Below are positions 9,897 to 60,557 of a DNA stretch of 64,000 bases, piece by piece; within the stretch, counting starts at the first letter, position 1, and each line of letters opens with the position of its first letter. The notes beneath the pieces were generated by a model. It saw nothing but the letters and a program-made list of their open reading frames with translations. It ran no database searches and was not told where the DNA came from. Made by a program: the position numbers and the translations under genes. Source of the stretch: an uncultured Candidatus Saccharibacteria bacterium (GTDB lineage Bacteria > Patescibacteriota > Minisyncoccia > Phycocordibacterales > PALSA-1337); assembly GCA_964358005.1 (NCBI GenBank), contig CAYHNH010000001.1, positions 11,625 to 75,624 of the forward strand, written 5' to 3'.

Positions 9897-11840
9897 TCAT
9901 CTCCCGGGCGCCACCACTTCGTCGCCCGACCGGAATATAGGGTCGCTGCTAAAGCTCGTCGTGAGATAGCCCTGGTTGCTCTCCACCTTGGACTTCGTCC
10001 ACATATCCTTGCCTGTGAAATAGGCTTGATTGATCAGGATCGGAGCCGTTCCTATCTGATTTACAGAGGGCTCCAACGACACCTGGAACTGCACCTCTCT
10101 CTTCGTGCCCGTCCCTGAAGTGAACGGTTCGACACTACCGACATGCCAAGTCACTACTCCGGTGTTCTTTTCGAATGAGATATTCTCGCCGCTAGGGCTT
10201 ATCTGCCCCGTCCAGCTCACTTGAGGAGGCAGCGTTGCTGTGACGATGGCCTCAGATATGGCGTTCGATGTGTTGTCCACGCTCCAATTGACTGTGTACG
10301 TCGTCTTCTGCTCGGCTACCGGCGGTATCGGACCGGTGTTAGCGATCGGGCCACTGCGAGTGATGCGTCCCTTAAGCGAGGCTGATGTGACCACTTTAAC
10401 CTTTCTGACTATGGATCCTGTATTCAAAAGCACTTTGTTCGAGCTCGTCCGATCGCCCGAAGCCGAGCCTGATATGGTTATCTCTGGATTTAGGATATGC
10501 GTGTCCGAGCCCTGGCTCTCCGACGGCGTTATCGAGAAGCTCAAGGTGCCGCTTCCGCCAGCGGAGAGAGAGGCAAGCTCCGGATTCGTCCTCTGATCCC
10601 AGACTATGTCATTGGTGGAAGACCTGTAATAGCCGGTCCAGGCCGATACGTTGTTCTTGTCATAGGCCGAGCCAGCCAAGTGAGCAGCTATCTCCACATT
10701 CGAGAGGGTCTCGGGCAGATTGTTGGCCCAGCGGAGATTTACGGTCAAGGAGCGTCCGATATTGCCCACATGATCGCCGATGGAAGAGTCGTTATCTATA
10801 TCTATCGCTATCGAGATGAAAGGTTTTTCGATGGTCAGAACCTGCTCGGTCTCCAGGAATGTAGTACCTATCATCGTCGGGTTCGAAGGACTCCTAGCTC
10901 CTACGTTGAAATGGAAGACCTTGAGATCGCTGTCCTCCCCGGTGAGGGCGCCTTTTATGCTTATCTTGCGCTCGCCACCAGGCGGTATGTCGCCGATCGA
11001 CCATACATTGCCGTCCCCAGTGAGAGGTTGCGGCACAGAGCTCTTGAAGACATAGCCGAACGGATATGTCGCGCGCATGATCACATTCTTGACCGTATTT
11101 GTGGAATTGGATTTGATGCTGACATTCATGTCGAAGGTCTGTCCTGATATGGCCTCCTCAAGCGAGGAGACGGACATGACCACAGGAGACGCGTTCACGA
11201 CCACGTCGTAACTGGATTCCTTGGTAAAGACGGAATTCGAGCCAGCTATGCCATATGTGACATCCGCGATTATCTTCTTCTGGAGGTTCTGCTCGCCGAA
11301 GATCACCGCTTCCACAGTCTTGGTGACAGAGCCGCCAGATGGTATGTCGCCCAGCACTTCCCTGTACACCTCGAGAGACTGTGTGGTATCCGTTGGGTCA
11401 GTGGTGCCTGGAGGGAAACGCACAGCCAGATCAGCTGTCTTCAGGGCTACCGTATTCTTATTCCTGACAGTTATGGCGAAGGAGACAGGCGCTCCGCCCG
11501 GAACTGATACAGGTCCGCTGATATCTATCTCGATGTTATTGCCGGAAATGAAATTGGCGCCATTGAAGAATATGTACGCGCCTATGCCGACCGCGGCGAG
11601 GCAGAAAACGACTGAATATATGAGAAGCTTTGTAAAAAAAGACATGCCGTGATGGCCCTCTGCGGAAGCCGCATCCGAGGTAGATCCATCGATCGGTTCC
11701 TTCTCGTGCTCCCAATCGCGCTGAATATCCGAGGCTTCGTTCGTGATGCGGAACTTCCGGCGCGAGCGTATATCCGGGGCGCTCCGGCTATACAAGGATT
11801 GTTTCAAAGACTCGATGCGGTTCTTCTCTTCGGGCATCAT
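9897..11840 (-). CDS. large membrane-anchored protein with ~4-5 repeated beta-rich extracellular domains
   Basis: 647 aa; ~70-aa cytoplasmic N-terminus, one TM helix (LLIYSVVFCLAAVGIGAYIFF), then repeated ~100-aa units with recurring GDIPxGG motif (DUF11/CARDB-like). Confidence 0.7.
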   Translation of the reverse strand: MMPEEKNRIESLKQSLYSRSAPDIRSRRKFRITNEASDIQRDWEHEKEPIDGSTSDAASAEGHHGMSFFTKLLIYSVVFCLAAVGIGAYIFFNGANFISGNNIEIDISGPVSVPGGAPVSFAITVRNKNTVALKTADLAVRFPPGTTDPTDTTQSLEVYREVLGDIPSGGSVTKTVEAVIFGEQNLQKKIIADVTYGIAGSNSVFTKESSYDVVVNASPVVMSVSSLEEAISGQTFDMNVSIKSNSTNTVKNVIMRATYPFGYVFKSSVPQPLTGDGNVWSIGDIPPGGERKISIKGALTGEDSDLKVFHFNVGARSPSNPTMIGTTFLETEQVLTIEKPFISIAIDIDNDSSIGDHVGNIGRSLTVNLRWANNLPETLSNVEIAAHLAGSAYDKNNVSAWTGYYRSSTNDIVWDQRTNPELASLSAGGSGTLSFSITPSESQGSDTHILNPEITISGSASGDRTSSNKVLLNTGSIVRKVKVVTSASLKGRITRSGPIANTGPIPPVAEQKTTYTVNWSVDNTSNAISEAIVTATLPPQVSWTGQISPSGENISFEKNTGVVTWHVGSVEPFTSGTGTKREVQFQVSLEPSVNQIGTAPILINQAYFTGKDMWTKSKVESNQGYLTTSFSSDPIFRSGDEVVAPGR

Positions 11841-29250: not shown

Positions 29251-29538
29251 GGAGGGTGTCACCCTTCCTTCAGCTCAACTTTTTTTATTTACAATAATAG
29301 AGAAATATTGTGCTAAGTGCTTCTACACCTTTCCTGCCGCACAAACAAGCGAGGAAGCTGCGTCAGTAATTGACTACCAGATAGAAATTTTTCTGCATGA
29401 AACCATGCTTATCGTCTATTGTATATAAAAATAGTAGGCGTACCCGAAGGATAACTCCCCCCCCTCACGCCTTCCGAGCGGTGTTATGCGCCGCGCCGCG
29501 CGACACCACGGTACGACACGCCCTTAATATAATAGAAA
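29251..29538. repeat. ~280-bp non-coding repeat element, copy 1 (inverted partner at 57599-57870)
   Basis: Reverse complement aligns with 57599-57870 at ~85-90% identity (shared blocks ttactgacgcagcttcctcgct, gaagcacttagcacaatatttctctattattgtaaat, ccttcgggtacgcctactatttttatatacaata); no ORF. Confidence 0.75.
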
Positions 29539-36061: not shown

Positions 36062-36147
36062 GAGCGAGGAACAAAAGGACAAGCTAGCTTGTCATGATAT
36101 CGTCTCAGTCTTTTTTTAACTAGTGCCAAATAAGAAGGTGTGATTGG

Positions 36148-43868: not shown

Positions 43869-44387
43869 ATGAATAGTCCTCACTCATATCGTCCTTTGAC
43901 AGACATGGAAATCAAAGTTCTCGGGTTGTTGGCAAGGGGCTACCTGATAAAGGAAGTCGCCGGAATCTTCAAGAGAAGCAAGAATAGCGTCAATGACACT
44001 ATGGCTCGAACACGCAAAAAATTGTTCGTTCCATCGTATATCAATAGCCAGACCATCCTACCGCTGCTCGCACTGCATACTGATCGGCTTGAGCGCATTC
44101 CCGAGATACCTGCGGAGCTCACTCACCGTCGGATCTGCATACTTCGCCATGTCACCTCCGGCTTGACGCAGGCTCAAACGGCAAAAGCGCTGGGGCTGTC
44201 CCGCGTCACCATCGAAAGACACATGGCAAAGATACGCTCAATCGTCGCTCGGGAACTGTGCCTCGATAATGTAAACAACGTCGAGCTCACTCACTACGCT
44301 ATAGCTCGTGGAATCACGCCTATCAAAAAGTCATATGTCGGGCTCTTCTCCAACAAGATTCCCTTTCCCTGCGCCGCCTCCGGGTAG
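43869..44387 (+). CDS. transcriptional regulator with two tandem LuxR/GerE-type HTH domains
   Basis: Two HTH regions: LTDMEIKVLGLLARGYLIKEVAGIFKRSKNSVNDTMARTRKKL and ICILRHVTSGLTQAQTAKALGLSRVTIERHMAKIRSIV; start set downstream of the predicted promoter. Confidence 0.7.
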   Translation: MNSPHSYRPLTDMEIKVLGLLARGYLIKEVAGIFKRSKNSVNDTMARTRKKLFVPSYINSQTILPLLALHTDRLERIPEIPAELTHRRICILRHVTSGLTQAQTAKALGLSRVTIERHMAKIRSIVARELCLDNVNNVELTHYAIARGITPIKKSYVGLFSNKIPFPCAASG

Positions 44388-44433
44388 GCGCTTTTTTGTT
44401 CACAGCAGAGAGCAGGCCTCGAAGCGCCATATC

Positions 44434-44508
44434 CGCTTCGCTCATATATCAACTGCGCTCGGACGCAACGCCAGCAAGCTGTCATGCATCCTCGCTTGTT
44501 GCTATAAT
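44434..44508 (+). promoter_or_regulatory. conserved ~75-bp promoter module, copy A (copy B at 58796-58870), extended -10 TGcTATAAT
   Basis: cgcttcgctcatatatcaactgcgctcggacgcaacgccagcaagctgtcatgcatcctcgcttgttgctataat; ~87% identical to the pilB upstream sequence. TATAAT ends 6 nt before the ATG at 44515 (leaderless or very short leader). Confidence 0.55.
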
Positions 44509-44514
44509 ATTCCC

Positions 44515-44979
44515 ATGGCCACTGAAGCTCTCATCTCCTGGACAGCCCCGACGCATGTACATACGGAAAAAAGACCCGACTGGTATTGGGCTGTCGGCAT
44601 AATCACGCTCGCTCTAGCGGCGGTCGCTTTCATTTTCGGCGAGATCATCACCGGCATATTCGTCATAGTCGCGGCCGTGGCCCTCGTCCTACACACGTCA
44701 CATCCACCGCAAGAGATAACCTATGAGATAAACGATCGAGGCATCCTTTTGAATGACATCTTATACCCGTTCGTGAGCCTAGACTCGTTCTGGATACCGC
44801 ATGACGAGAACCAGCCGAAGATCCTGGTCAAATCCCGCAAGCTCATCGCGCCGCTCATGATCATCCACATAGACGAAGTGGATCCCGAAGAAGTCCGTAA
44901 GATCCTCCTGAAATACATAGCCGAGACCGAACACCGCGAGCCCGTCCTGAAGAAGCTCCTGGAGTGGTTGGGGTTCTAA
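44515..44979 (+). CDS. hypothetical 2-TM membrane protein
   Basis: 154 aa; start immediately after the shared promoter module; hydrophobic helices (WYWAVGIITLALAAVAFIF, ITGIFVIVAAVALVL). Confidence 0.6.
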   Translation: MATEALISWTAPTHVHTEKRPDWYWAVGIITLALAAVAFIFGEIITGIFVIVAAVALVLHTSHPPQEITYEINDRGILLNDILYPFVSLDSFWIPHDENQPKILVKSRKLIAPLMIIHIDEVDPEEVRKILLKYIAETEHREPVLKKLLEWLGF

Positions 44980-54411: not shown

Positions 54412-54498
54412 GAGTGAGGGGCAAGCCGGGAAGTCCTACTTCTCGGCTTGGACCGAACGAAGCGCCTATATCGAAGATATGGGCGCAACGCAATCTGT

Positions 54499-57598: not shown

Positions 57599-57870
57599 TT
57601 ATTTCAGCGCCCTCTATTAAGGGGATGACATATAACGCCGCTCGGGGGGCGTGGGGGGGTTATCCTTCGGGTACGCCTACTATTTTTATATACAATAAAC
57701 GATAAATGTGATGCCATGCAGAAAAATTCTACCTCTAACCTGATTTACTGACGCAGCTTCCTCGCTCGTTTGTGCAGTAGGAAAGGTATAGAAGCACTTA
57801 GCACAATATTTCTCTATTATTGTAAATGAAAAAAGTTGGGCTGAAGGAAGTGTGACGCCTTCCTCCCTCC
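57599..57870. repeat. ~280-bp non-coding repeat element, copy 2 (inverted relative to copy 1 at 29251-29538)
   Basis: Reverse-complement match to copy 1 (~85-90% identity); copy 1 has an extra ~35-bp GC-rich insert near one end. Contains CC-UUCG-GG tetraloop-like hairpin on the plus strand. Confidence 0.75.
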
Positions 57871-57934: not shown

Positions 57935-58411
57935 TCAATTTAATTGTATTGTGTACACCCCCTCTCTGATCTCGGATCTCAACCAGCCGCCACCAGAGAA
58001 ATCCGCCTGCCCGAGCCCCACATTTTCTGGCCACTCGATCATCACCAGATTATGCGGATCAGCCACGACATCCTCGAACCTCAAAGCCTCCAGATCTTCA
58101 CGCTTCTCTAGCCTATACGCATCTATATGGACCAGTCTCTTGAAAATATCGTCCCTAGTCTCATAGATCTTCATGATGACAAAAGTCGGACTAGTGACGA
58201 TCTCCTCGATCCCGAGCTCCTTCGCCACCGCCTTCACAAAGGCCGTCTTGCCTGCCCCCAGGTGGCCGCTTAGGCCCGCCACAAAAGCTCCGCCTGTTTC
58301 GCTGGCAGTCACCCGCCCTTCTGACACCTGCGCCAGCCATTCAGCGGCTATGCTGGCCGTATCTTCAAGCGAACGCGACTCCATGTATTTCATGAGCGAA
58401 TCATACATCAT
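57935..58411 (-). CDS. tsaE: tRNA threonylcarbamoyladenosine biosynthesis protein TsaE (YjeE ATPase)
   Basis: Walker A GHLGAGKTAFVK and TsaE pattern (IVTSPTFVIMKIYE); start set at MMYDSLMKYMES; the longer ORF-track N-terminus lies in a different gene region. Confidence 0.85.
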   Translation of the reverse strand: MMYDSLMKYMESRSLEDTASIAAEWLAQVSEGRVTASETGGAFVAGLSGHLGAGKTAFVKAVAKELGIEEIVTSPTFVIMKIYETRDDIFKRLVHIDAYRLEKREDLEALRFEDVVADPHNLVMIEWPENVGLGQADFSGGGWLRSEIREGVYTIQLN

Positions 58412-58475: not shown

Positions 58476-58733
58476 TCAGCGGCGTGAGTGGCGCGCTGGC
58501 TGATGATGCGGGCTCCCGCCGTGATGGCCACGGTAGCCATTGCCCCCGAAGTAGGTAGGCCACCAGTAGTAGCCGCTGTAACCCGACCAGTATCCCGAGT
58601 AAGACGGCGCGTAATAACCTTGATACACCGGCACCGGAATGATGACGCGGTATCCGCCGCCCGGGTAGACCACACAGCCACCGAGCACGAACATTGCAAT
58701 GAGCAAGCAAACTCGAACAGCATTAGTTTTCAT
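58476..58733 (-). CDS. small Gly/Tyr/Trp-rich putative lipoprotein (85 aa)
   Basis: Signal peptide + lipobox (MKTNAVRVCLLIAMFVLGGC) then YSGYWSGYSGYYWWPTYFGGNGYRGHHGG; candidate TTGCGC-17-TATAAC promoter upstream; terminator downstream. Confidence 0.5.
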   Translation of the reverse strand: MKTNAVRVCLLIAMFVLGGCVVYPGGGYRVIIPVPVYQGYYAPSYSGYWSGYSGYYWWPTYFGGNGYRGHHGGSPHHQPARHSRR

Positions 58734-58795
58734 AGAGGGAATTCAATCTTGTTATACACCCGCCCTATATATGGCGCAAGTGCCTCTGGTATATT

Positions 58796-58870
58796 CGCTT
58801 CGCTCATATATCAACTGCGCTCGGACGTTGCGCCAGCAAGCTGTTGCACGTCCTCGCTTGTTGCTATAAT
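58796..58870 (+). promoter_or_regulatory. conserved ~75-bp promoter module, copy B (upstream of pilB), extended -10 TGcTATAAT
   Basis: cgcttcgctcatatatcaactgcgctcggacgttgcgccagcaagctgttgcacgtcctcgcttgttgctataat; -10 ends 13 nt before the pilB ATG. Confidence 0.55.
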
Positions 58871-58883
58871 CAAACCGACATTC

Positions 58884-60557
58884 ATGACCATTCATTTCGA
58901 CGAGGACAAACAGAACCAGAAGCTCAACGATCTCATACACCGTGAGGAAGAGGACCTCGTACAGCTCCTATCAGGAAAATACGGCATAGACTATGTGAAC
59001 CTACAGCTCTCGAACGTCAACACCGACGCCTTGCGCCTCATAGACGAAAAGACCGCCCGCGAGGTCAAAGTCGCGGCCTATGCCCTGCAGGACAAGAAGG
59101 TCAAGATAGGCGCCCGCAACCCAGACGACCCCAAGGTAAAGGCCCTCGTCGACGACCTCACCTCCAAGAGTTATAAACCGGAGATATCTATAGTCTCCAC
59201 TCAGAGCCTAGAGAAAGCCTGGAAGGCCTACAAGGACCTCTCCTTCGCCTACGAATCCCGCGGTGGCTCTCTCGAGATAGCGAGCGATGAGATAGCGAAC
59301 ATCATAAGCACCGCGCAGAGCCTCCCTGTCATCGTCTCCATTCTGGAAAATACGCTCAAAGGCAATAAGATGTACCGCGTATCGCGCATCCTGGAAACCA
59401 TGCTGGCCGGCGCACTGGCCATCGATGCCTCAGACGTGCACCTTGAGCCAGAGGAAGAATACATACGCCTCCGCTACCGCCTCGATGGCGTGCTCCATGA
59501 AGTCATCCGTTTCGACACGGAGACATATAACCTCGTCTTGTCCCGAATCAAGCTCATCTCGGGAATGAAGCTGAACATAAAGAAGGATTCCCAGGATGGT
59601 CGTTTCAGCATCCATCTTCCCATCGGAGAGATCGAGGTTCGCGTCTCCATCCTGCCCGGGGCGTATAACGAATCCATCGTGATGAGGCTCCTCAATCCGA
59701 AGTCCATAAATGTTCCCCTGGAGAGCCTCGGCATCCCGCCGAAACTCCTAGACATTCTCCTCAAGGAGATGAACAGACCAGACGGCATGATCCTGACTAC
59801 TGGTCCTACAGGATCCGGAAAGACGACCACCTTGTATGCATTCTTGAAAAAAGTGCACAGCCCCGACGTGAAGATCATAACCATCGAAGATCCCATCGAA
59901 TATCATCTGCCCGGTATAGTGCAGACCCAGGTCAACGACAAAGGATACAACTTCGTCGAGGGCCTCCGCGCTGCCGTCCGTCAGGATCCGGACATCATAA
60001 TGATCGGTGAGATTCGAGACGGCGAGACGGCGGCCATCGCCGTCAATTCCGCGCTCACTGGCCACCTAGTCTTCTCCACATTGCACACCAATGACGCCGC
60101 CGGAACATTCCCCCGTCTCATAGATCTGGGCGTCAGTCAGACTATCATTCCGTCAGCCTTACGCGTCTCTATGGCTCAGCGCCTCGTCAGGAAATTGTGT
60201 CCCGTCTGCAGGAAAGAAGCCCCGGTAGAAGGAGCCATCTTGGCGGAGATCCAGAAAACTCTCGACACCATAGAGGACAAGGCCCTTGTTACGACAGGTC
60301 CCATGAAGATGTGGCTGCCTGTCGGATGCGAGAAATGCAACAAGACCGGCTACAAAGGCCGTGTAGGCATATATGAAGCCATATTAATGAACCAAAATAT
60401 CGAGAAAGCAGTCCAGACGGGCTCGAGCGACCGCGAGATCTGGCAGGCTGCGATAGGACAAGGCCTGCTCACCATGAAACAGGACGGTGTATTGAAAGTG
60501 CTTTCAGGAATTACTTCTATCGAGGAGCTCGAGCGCGTAATTGCAGTTGGTGATTAG
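58884..60557 (+). CDS. pilB: type IV pilus assembly ATPase PilB (GspE family)
   Basis: Start set at MTIHFDEDKQ downstream of the promoter module; N-terminal GSPII-like domain, Walker A TTGPTGSGKTTTL, Walker B/His box, CxxC...CxxC tetracysteine motif. Confidence 0.9.
   Translation: MTIHFDEDKQNQKLNDLIHREEEDLVQLLSGKYGIDYVNLQLSNVNTDALRLIDEKTAREVKVAAYALQDKKVKIGARNPDDPKVKALVDDLTSKSYKPEISIVSTQSLEKAWKAYKDLSFAYESRGGSLEIASDEIANIISTAQSLPVIVSILENTLKGNKMYRVSRILETMLAGALAIDASDVHLEPEEEYIRLRYRLDGVLHEVIRFDTETYNLVLSRIKLISGMKLNIKKDSQDGRFSIHLPIGEIEVRVSILPGAYNESIVMRLLNPKSINVPLESLGIPPKLLDILLKEMNRPDGMILTTGPTGSGKTTTLYAFLKKVHSPDVKIITIEDPIEYHLPGIVQTQVNDKGYNFVEGLRAAVRQDPDIIMIGEIRDGETAAIAVNSALTGHLVFSTLHTNDAAGTFPRLIDLGVSQTIIPSALRVSMAQRLVRKLCPVCRKEAPVEGAILAEIQKTLDTIEDKALVTTGPMKMWLPVGCEKCNKTGYKGRVGIYEAILMNQNIEKAVQTGSSDREIWQAAIGQGLLTMKQDGVLKVLSGITSIEELERVIAVGD

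Follow-up and report, generated by a model that had tools for sequence, protein, structure and literature searches.

The 64,000-nucleotide (nt) window analysed here (positions 11,625 to 75,624 of contig CAYHNH010000001.1, assembly GCA_964358005.1, filed under an uncultured Candidatus Saccharibacteria bacterium) contains two look-alike promoter modules, one in front of a gene for a 154-amino-acid (aa) membrane protein and one in front of pilB. The initial annotation had described them as a duplicated plus-strand module of about 75 bp ending in an extended -10 promoter, and on both counts it was right. A repeat search and alignment over the whole window place an 80-nt repeat, 89% identical between its copies, on the plus strand at 44429-44508 (copy A) and 58791-58870 (copy B). 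Within the window the 19-mer CCTCGCTTGTTGCTATAAT and the 32-mer CGCTTCGCTCATATATCAACTGCGCTCGGACG occur exactly twice each, against chance expectations of 0.01 and 0.00 respectively, and the 3' end of both copies is the extended -10 sequence TGCTATAAT.

The two modules are best explained as paralogues within a family of small, non-coding hairpin repeats found in Patescibacteria (the candidate phyla radiation, CPR), and not as an operator. Tentatively, we read them as a dispersed repeat that is mobile or was so formerly, probably handled as single-stranded DNA, which would enter behind a ...CTATA box and end in a copy of that box. The 14 kb separating the two copies are core DNA (ruvA, a Mur ligase, holA, polA, tsaE and tRNAs) with the same synteny as in relatives, which rules out an island flanked by copies A and B as direct repeats. 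The best named protein matches of the window are to Paceibacterota, near 'Candidatus Taylorbacteria', and a Hainich groundwater contig (L019) equals the window sequence over the approximately 145 nt compared around copy B.

Anatomy of the element

In the 5' to 3' orientation of its downstream gene, the element comprises a first box (B1), a short loop, an inverted second box (B2), a left arm, a variable hairpin, a right arm and a third box (B3), and has a unit length of roughly 75-95 nt (Table 1). B1 is exemplified by GTTGCTATA, the loop is of the TCGCTTCGCTCA or GGATGACC type, B2 reads TATAGCAAC and the left arm NGCGCTCGGAC. The hairpin, of 24-33 nt, is free in sequence, and is followed by the conserved right arm TCCTCGCTT and by B3, GTTGCTATAAT. 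In copies A and B the latter is the extended -10 of a predicted leaderless gene; at some other loci it is formed by nucleotides 1-9 of a tRNA.

The variable centre covaries as a hairpin. RNAalifold predicts 17 pairs from 12 copies, 7 of them with compensatory changes. In a covariance-model alignment of 15 distinct copies 94% of the cells are paired and double changes are seen at 11 of 17 pairs, values which were reached by no shuffle and which compare with 40-55% pairing in slid controls. The arms retain conserved unpaired bases, with CTC facing T and N facing TT. Between copies A and B themselves, the stem has a C-G pair in A against T-A in B, and C-G in B where A has a C.A mismatch. The 'caa versus ttg' difference, earlier read as a local inversion, is thus no inversion, being instead one side of compensatory changes in the hairpin stem. 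The three boxes are likewise matched to one another. B2 can pair with B3 at 6-9 of 9 positions in all 15 copies, and three positions covary fully among GTTGC, GGGCC and GCGCC types; B1 equals B3 as a direct repeat at 5-9 of 9 positions in the same 15 copies, and B1 pairs with B2 at 4-8 of 9. B2 adjoins the hairpin foot on its 5' side and is internal to the element, being preceded by the loop. B3 belongs in part or in whole to the target, and in two cases it is the tRNA.

The two strands of the element do not fold equally well. Most hairpin mismatches are C.A on the gene-sense strand and hence G.T on the complementary one. Folded by itself with RNA parameters, the variable hairpin is more stable as the complement in 14 copies, equally stable in 4 and less so in 1; DNA parameters give 16, 2 and 1. 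When the arms are included the complement is more stable in 17 of 17. These counts come from copies that are not all independent, and the small differences arise from loops. All six large differences in fold stability favor the complement. On these modelled energies, the asymmetry favors a structure formed by one DNA strand and speaks against a sense-strand RNA leader. In Rfam searches of the window tRNAs alone reach the gathering threshold, and a scan of copy B at E up to 10 returned nothing relevant.

Some copies have a more complex left side. At L016:561-673 two left modules stand in tandem, GTTGCTATAT-GGAGGACC-ACATATCGA and then TGCTATAT-TCGCTCCGCTCA-TATACCAAC, before a single hairpin and right arm, and the arrangement looks as if one unit had entered the box of an earlier unit. 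Right-arm fragments (CTTGTTGC, GTTGC) lie immediately to the left of B1 in L012 and L001.

Unrelated loci, empty sites and promoter context

When 185,579 species genomes were scanned for the 19-mer CCTCGCTTGTTGCTATAAT, seven CPR loci were found, plus two matches consistent with chance. Four of the seven are on one 305-kb Paceibacterota contig, and there is one each in another Paceibacterota genome, a Saccharibacteria metagenome-assembled genome (MAG) and an unclassified MAG. A metagenome scan with the pattern GCTCGGA-N24-30-CTCGCTTGTTGCTAT gave ten further loci. Overall, 15 distinct full or near-full copies were counted, their loci being unrelated and belonging to Paceibacterota, to Saccharibacteria or to CPR contigs without classification. 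A motif scan recovers these copies, the tRNA-linked ones included, against about 0.05 matches per shuffled window. The 64-kb window holds two canonical and two diverged copies; run over the window, the covariance model detects only copies A and B, and the looser motif scan adds a copy at tRNA-Lys. The loci read on the 305-kb contig contain two full, two solo or diverged right-arm and one tRNA-linked copies. Members L001, L002, L003 and L006, which were found via the right arm only, also have the left arm, (G/T)GCGCTCGGA, and the inverted box TATAGCAAC. The hairpin centre is AT-rich in Saccharibacteria and GC-rich in the window; the arms and B2 are nonetheless conserved.

In these scans, of the kind proposed in the initial annotation, the copies stand at gene starts, and the genes downstream are unrelated and include tRNAs. 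They encode D-Ala-D-Ala ligase (ddl), an ATPase like the coupling protein of type IV secretion systems, Fe/Mn superoxide dismutase (sodA), CorA, a Bro-N protein, PrsW, PrgI, a transglycosylase, a response regulator, Pgk, tRNA-Ala and tRNA-Lys. The -10 hexamer lies 6-7 nt from the ATG in 11 of 17 distinct cases. The genes 5' of the copies are housekeeping ones, including those for a UvrC-like protein, a flavoprotein, an S41 peptidase, PBP2, a ComEC-like protein, L25, a KH protein and S16. Where such genes are co-oriented they end 95-99 nt before the hexamer, such that the element occupies the entire spacer. A parent insertion sequence was rejected, the genes upstream of every copy being housekeeping genes with no transposase among them. 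Carriage by phages or plasmids was likewise rejected, a scan of viral contigs having given a single chance match with neither hairpin nor TATA box.

Relatives provide both empty and filled versions of the same sites. The gene order polA-tsaE | pilB-ruvB is conserved in them. At pilB the element is absent from L022-L024 (82-84% PilB identity), in which there is a spacer of 34-42 nt or a different promoter. L020 (95%) shares the flanks of copy B and has only a right-arm stump, cttcatttaaTCCTCACTTGCCGCTATAAT / TCCTCACTTGCCGCTATAAT, making the site 60 nt shorter, with 13 nt to the ATG as in the window. In front of the 154-aa gene there is no element in L026, L027 and L028 (81%, 77% and 73% identity), where TGTTATAAT or TGCTATAAT is followed by 6 nt and the ATG; these empty promoters thus carry TGYTATAAT in the same register. 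In L026 and L027 the -10 box TGTTATAAT comes 13-16 nt after tRNA-Ser. L025, whose 154-aa protein is 96% identical, carries the element in full, with 2 of 77 nt changed relative to copy A. Its B1, TGCTCTAT, is 9 nt downstream of tRNA-Ser, in the place that the -10 box occupies in L026 and L027, and the element and a fresh -10 follow downstream, a layout that fits B1 being the old promoter box. A short decayed copy precedes the gene in L033 (71%).

The promoters themselves are of a kind common in the window. TAnnnT ends 6-7 nt before an in-frame ATG or GTG in 29 of 71 open reading frames (ORFs) of the window, other offsets accounting for about 5. In these, about 40% of the ORFs, the hexamer often comes after TGn and there is no Shine-Dalgarno sequence; minus-strand examples are at 58405, 57584, 54324, 52228 and 41708. 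Judged from this layout, the genome appears to rely mainly on leaderless expression. The genes for tRNA-Ser and tRNA-Leu have a -10 merely 8-16 nt upstream. Most window promoters of the 6-7-nt layout are without CCTCGCTTGTTGC, and the module can therefore be described as an ordinary extended -10 promoter plus an extra part. Copies A and B both have the sigma-70 extended -10 pattern (TGnTAnnnT), the start codon following at 6 nt in copy A, in keeping with the 6-7-nt layout, and at 13 nt in copy B. We rejected a sigma-54 promoter or a conserved -35, as there is no GG-N10-GC and the -35 position falls within a strand of the variable hairpin. The earlier proposal of leaderless transcription at copy A stands as a prediction, in line with the enrichment at 6-7 nt; for pilB the absence of a Shine-Dalgarno sequence holds, and the ATG stands 13 nt past the hexamer. 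In these genomes the extended -10 together with the 6-7-nt rule offers reliable start-codon calls.

The 154-aa protein keeps its length across Paceibacterota and shows a weak DUF5673 match; the exact product of the window is not among the database matches, the best of which is 96% identical. The longest ORF of the gene has 223 aa and starts at a GTG at 44308 (44308-44979), in frame through the whole of copy A. In homologues annotated at 171-179 aa (P0123, P0147, P0181) the start codon has probably been called too far upstream in a similar way. To the left of copy A, the approximately 1.2-kb segment 43203-44428, from tRNA-Ser(tga) to the element, holds an 87-aa minus-strand ORF and the GerE/LuxR-type ORF. 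This segment is missing from L025, where tRNA-Ser sits 14 nt from the element and the adjoining block is about 90% identical; homology to the window restarts exactly at the left edge of the element, 44430. The segment is a lineage-specific insertion or deletion beside a tRNA gene.

Members linked to tRNA genes

Two diverged members of the window adjoin tRNA genes (Table 1). The one filling the holA-tRNA-Lys spacer abuts nucleotide 1 of tRNA-Lys (54411), so that its B3 is nucleotides 1-9 of the tRNA. The covariance model misses it, as it is too divergent from the canonical copies A and B (89% alike). It is orthologous in L030-L032 (72-75% holA identity), in the same place, with drifted arms and different covarying hairpins. 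The partial member upstream of tRNA-Arg(ccg) has the exact right-arm 8-mer and no recognizable B1, B2 or left arm. On the 305-kb contig the covariance model finds a diverged copy at L014:1230-1322, whose right arm, TCCTCGCT plus A, adjoins nucleotide 1 of tRNA-Ala. Here B3, GGGCCTATA, is the 5' end of the tRNA, B1 is the identical 9-mer and B2, TGAGGCCC, is its complement.

The TATA or CATA of such a B3 cannot be the -10 of that tRNA, and it follows that the sites share a sequence, (G/C)C-YATA, and not a function. The loop between B1 and B2 in L031, ATATGGATGACCATAT, is common to it and the canonical copy L011, thereby tying the tRNA-linked and canonical members together. In the holA-tRNA-Lys spacer of L030 (2140-2330; Taylorbacteria GCA_026395095) the tRNA-Lys is without about 12 nt of its 5' part. 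It reads GCG|GTGGTAGAGC versus GCGCCCATAGCTCAGCTGGTAGAGC, ARAGORN calls no tRNA, and GCGCCCATATC stands twice in tandem upstream. A pseudogene, a collapse of the assembly over the repeated boxes and a rearrangement due to the element are all possible readings.

Table 1. Positions of the hairpin elements and of adjacent genes in the 64-kb window
Feature	Position	Strand	Sequence or remark
Copy A, whole element	44423..44508	+	covariance model 82 bits
Copy A, B1 relic	44423-44431	+	AGCGCCATA
Copy A, loop	44432-44444	+	TCCGCTTCGCTCA
Copy A, B2	44445-44453	+	TATATCAAC
Copy A, left arm	44454-44464	+	TGCGCTCGGAC
Copy A, variable hairpin	44465-44488	+	
Copy A, right arm	44489-44497	+	TCCTCGCTT
Copy A, B3	44498-44508	+	GTTGCTATAAT; -10 hexamer 44503-44508
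Copy B, whole element	58785..58870	+	covariance model 90 bits
Copy B, B1	58785-58793	+	TCTGGTATA; TGGTATATT itself resembles an extended -10
Copy B, loop	58794-58806	+	
Copy B, B2	58807-58815	+	
Copy B, left arm	58816-58826	+	
Copy B, variable hairpin	58827-58850	+	
Copy B, right arm	58851-58859	+	
Copy B, B3	58860-58870	+	-10 hexamer 58865-58870
tRNA-Lys member, diverged	54412..54486	-	fills the holA-tRNA-Lys spacer
tRNA-Lys member, B1	54486-54478	-	GCGCCCATA
tRNA-Lys member, B2	54470-54462	-	TATAGGCGC
tRNA-Lys member, left arm		-	TTCGTTCGGTC
tRNA-Lys member, hairpin	54450-54422	-	
tRNA-Lys member, right arm	54421-54412	-	CCCCTCACTC
tRNA-Arg(ccg) member, partial, upstream of the gene	36062..36093	-	
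tRNA-Arg(ccg) member, hairpin	36093-36078	-	GACAAGCTAGCTTGTC
tRNA-Arg(ccg) member, exact right-arm 8-mer	36070-36063	-	TCCTCGCT; then 1 nt (C), then tRNA nucleotide 1 (36061)
Gene for 154-aa two-transmembrane protein	44515..44979	+	ATG 6 nt past copy A -10; predicted leaderless
pilB	58884..60557	+	T2SSE ATPase, E = 3e-117; ATG 13 nt past copy B -10; no Shine-Dalgarno
GerE/LuxR-type ORF with two helix-turn-helix domains (43869-44387) and its own intrinsic terminator (44375-44396)	43869..44396	+	context, outside element
85-aa lipoprotein-like ORF	58476..58733	-	signal peptide ending LGGC; divergent, upstream of copy B; context

Origin of the element and comparison with known systems

Under the mobile-repeat reading, a trans-acting enzyme would recognize the element in folded, single-stranded form, and the element would integrate just 3' of a ...(G/C)C-TATA box, terminating in a copy of that box. 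The old box would remain as B1, the -10 or the 5' end of the tRNA would be reconstituted without a shift of register, and loss between the direct repeats B1 and B3 would restore a simple promoter. Accordingly understood, pilB and the 154-aa gene would still be transcribed from a pre-existing ordinary extended -10 promoter, and the conserved approximately 60 bp upstream would be the element's own recognition structure. Such a repeat, inserted behind a box and ending in a copy of it, would explain the fixed start-codon register, the clean empty sites, the relic B1, the unrelated targets, the similarity of paralogues within a genome and the survival of such DNA where there is almost no spare spacer. 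As in miniature inverted-repeat transposable elements (MITEs), a short non-coding unit is found at several unrelated loci, with presence and absence at orthologous sites. A simpler form, with a plain 9-bp target-site duplication in which B3 is all target-derived, was rejected for the canonical copies because their B3 (..TTGTTGC) matches B2 but differs from the empty site (aagTGT, aagTGC). It does suit the tRNA-linked copies, leaving the boundary of the element ambiguous.

A second repeat family in the window has two inverted non-coding copies of about 210-250 nt, at 29251-29461 (-) and 57653-57863 (+), which are 89-92% identical. Either copy folds as a single extended, imperfect hairpin, with z near -3.2 whichever strand is taken. 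L023 and L024 lack the copy that separates tsaE from polA in the window, and in them the two genes adjoin directly. The unit contains TTCCTCGCT(C/T)GTTTG, resembling the right arm of the main element, and has no Rfam match. This genome thus tolerates other palindromic insertions, which we count in favor of a mobile origin.

Several observations weigh against such an origin. No transposase or recombinase was seen among the inspected genes neighboring any copy, nor among the best 25 of 75 Pfam families matching the ORFs of the window. The near-invariance of the right arm and GCTCGGA is partly ascertainment, as the search patterns required both; copies found by other routes (L014b, L020, L033 and the tRNA-linked ones) diverge in the right arm or GCTCGGA. 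The boundaries are ambiguous also in that TGCTATA is common to target and element, and the better-folding strand is opposite to that of an IS608-like reading. Guidance by B2 does not readily account for the way in which B2 and B3 would both be retargeted to a tRNA 5' end. Moreover, B1 and B2 of the tRNA-Lys copy track position 7 of the tRNA acceptor stem (A7 in the window, T7 in L032), which in sequence terms points to long residence with in-situ maintenance of pairing. Template-switch correction of quasi-palindromes is one route to maintained box pairing, and such maintenance might reflect either this process or a function.

A rival explanation takes the element to be a structured RNA leader or switch, transcribed from B1 (TGGTATATT or TGCTATATT, resembling an extended -10) or by upstream read-through, in which B2 would pair with B1 (hairpin P1) or with B3 (the tRNA 5' end or pre-AUG region) to control processing, folding or translation, the copies having been duplicated and then locally adapted. 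The tRNA-linked copies must indeed be transcribed through, there being no -10 between hairpin and tRNA nucleotide 1, and the mutually exclusive B1:B2 and B2:B3 pairings both follow the local sequence, including the change in the tRNA acceptor stem. The internal loops of the arms are conserved, the L025 element is 2/77 nt off copy A versus about 90% identity over the 550-bp BLAST block from the element to the 154-aa gene, and co-oriented upstream genes, ending 95-99 nt before the -10, make the element their 3' untranslated region or spacer. We nevertheless consider an RNA leader rather unlikely: in 14-17 of 17-19 copies the sense strand folds less stably than the antisense strand (C.A versus antisense G.U), copy B and other divergent contexts have no co-oriented upstream gene, and a -10-type B3 upstream of a predicted leaderless start lies outside that mRNA. 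There is also no Rfam match, and a regulator that is needed would not usually come and go at housekeeping genes from one close relative to the next. Alternatively, the element might insulate adjacent genes, its hairpin stopping transcription from both sides before a restart at TGCTATAAT. An A-rich left box and a T-rich right box (TTGTTGCT), with 5 T in 8 nt at the right flank, a near-symmetric architecture on both strands, a free-sequence hairpin of conserved structure as is typical of terminators and the spanning of the whole gap between co-oriented genes would befit such a punctuation unit in a genome with almost no intergenic space. Yet a terminator scan does not call the element, the 3' flank of which is TCGCTTGTTGC, a separate canonical terminator (GC stem and TTTTTT) already lies 30 nt upstream of copy A, and the tRNA-linked copies need read-through to make the tRNA. 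As the repetition of B3 by B1 and the cross-phylum conservation of the arms are left unexplained too, this explanation is improbable.

The operator proposed in the initial annotation, with an activator, possibly the adjacent GerE/LuxR protein, binding the conserved 50 bp or so to govern a small pilus or surface regulon including pilB, draws on two strongly conserved inverted arms around position -40, and on solo right arms kept at promoters (L004, L008, L009, L020). Mobile elements can moreover carry factor-binding sites, as with the IHF sites on Correia elements (PMC2649163). An operator is nonetheless quite improbable. The same unit precedes functionally unrelated housekeeping genes and tRNA genes, nucleotide 1 of which the right arm abuts, its palindromic centre is free in sequence yet covaries as a hairpin, and it is absent from the orthologous pilB promoters of L022-L024 and the 154-aa promoters of L026-L028. 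The GerE protein itself is very unlikely to be the cognate factor: its gene is missing in L025, which carries copy A, making the adjacency incidental, and no GerE-type gene was seen beside any other copy. For annotation, upstream conservation common to the two promoters is not evidence of co-regulation. The last alternative is a solitary attC-like site of the integron type, recombined as a folded bottom strand, with B2 as R'' (..CAAC), the left arm as L'', the hairpin as variable terminal structure, the right arm as L' and B3 as R' (GTTG..). Like attC sites and SALINs, the element is a 60-70-nt imperfect palindrome (core 66-70 nt). As in those sites, its outer boxes are conserved (AAC...GTT in canonical copies), its spacer is asymmetric, with the extra unpaired bases on the R''-L'' side, its apex varies and its bottom strand folds better (10.1101/2022.09.11.507474). 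About half of the loci have the orientation expected behind an upstream ORF, and single sites outside integrons are known (SALINs; 10.1101/2022.09.11.507474). Its boxes, however, vary with the local downstream sequence, being GGCGC...GCGCC or GGCCC...GGGCC in place of AAC...GTT in tRNA-linked copies, and its arm sequence is conserved across phyla, unlike in attC sites. The sites are solitary and not arrayed, they lie at gene starts among core housekeeping genes whose synteny is conserved, and neither the genes beside the copies nor the best 25 of 75 Pfam families of the window included an integrase. A B1-B2 'cassette' would measure just 3-13 nt, and B2:B3 pairs better than B1:B2, the reverse of what cassette insertion at a secondary site predicts. 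We find this alternative scarcely credible.

CPR genomes are highly streamlined and their non-coding features almost unstudied. Searches of the literature on CPR promoters, leaderless starts, MITEs and attC, and a sequence-string search, gave no description of the element. Leaderless extended -10 promoters of Actinobacteria and Deinococcus resemble it in the B3 TGCTATAAT with a start codon 6-7 nt on (copy A), a model that covers just the last 9-11 nt of the module and not the approximately 65 nt upstream. Like the Correia elements (CREE) of Neisseria and MITEs, it is short, non-coding and dispersed, has a long hairpin, varies in presence between strains and is located at promoters. As in the element, the ends of Correia elements at promoters contain TATA and create or preserve a -10 box (PMC2649163); on this analogy they are the closest counterpart as regards promoter-forming ends. 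The element differs from them in being without classic terminal inverted repeats at its true ends and without a TA duplication, in standing in exact register with a pre-existing -10 or tRNA 5' end, in having an internal box complementary to the flanking boxes and a sequence-free, covarying central hairpin, and in occurring in CPR at low copy, about 1 per 20-70 kb of the DNA examined. A repeat that settles on -10 boxes and tRNA 5' ends and leaves them intact would show how selfish or domesticated DNA can persist in intergenic space of tens of bases, and it would mark recent genome change between close lineages.

A further parallel is offered by IS200/IS605 ends, their non-autonomous derivatives and REP/RAYT elements. 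In IS608, base pairing takes place between the cleavage sites and guides lying 5' of the foot of the hairpin (PMC3201880, PMC5934647). In its order of parts the element resembles an IS200/IS605 end, which runs from a cleavage site over a guide just 5' of the hairpin foot and the hairpin to a second cleavage site, B2 being the putative guide. It also has in common with these systems a subterminal imperfect hairpin, with B2 complementary to B1 upstream and B3 downstream (PMC3201880, PMC5934647, PMC8266576), and would share with them insertion beside a short specific sequence left intact, potentially seamless excision and an implied strand-specific folding. Unlike IS200/IS605, it has one recognition hairpin and not two ends, complementarity of 5-9 nt as against 4 and a downstream box 1-2 nt from the foot as against about 10; no Y1/HUH transposase was found near any copy or among the best 25 of 75 Pfam families of the window, the opposite strand folds better and the tRNA-Lys copy is evolutionarily stable. 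An enzyme specifically of the IS200/IS605 class is unlikely. It is conceivable, if distinctly unlikely, that this is a new, minimal self-targeting single-strand mobile element. In that case B2, as an internal guide of 5-9 nt, would base-pair with a chromosomal box, be it the extended -10 of a leaderless gene or nucleotides 1-9 of a tRNA; the element would insert behind the box and end in a copy of it, so that essential promoters and tRNAs would be rebuilt seamlessly and excision would be scarless. If base pairing by the internal box did direct insertion, nature would here provide a retargetable insertion system of very small size; and the self-targeting reading, if true, would present a promoter-homing, potentially reprogrammable element suited to genomes with almost no spare intergenic DNA. 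Set beside all these systems, the element is a palindromic dispersed repeat that is unusual in its exact placement on -10 boxes and tRNA 5' ends and in its three locally matched boxes.

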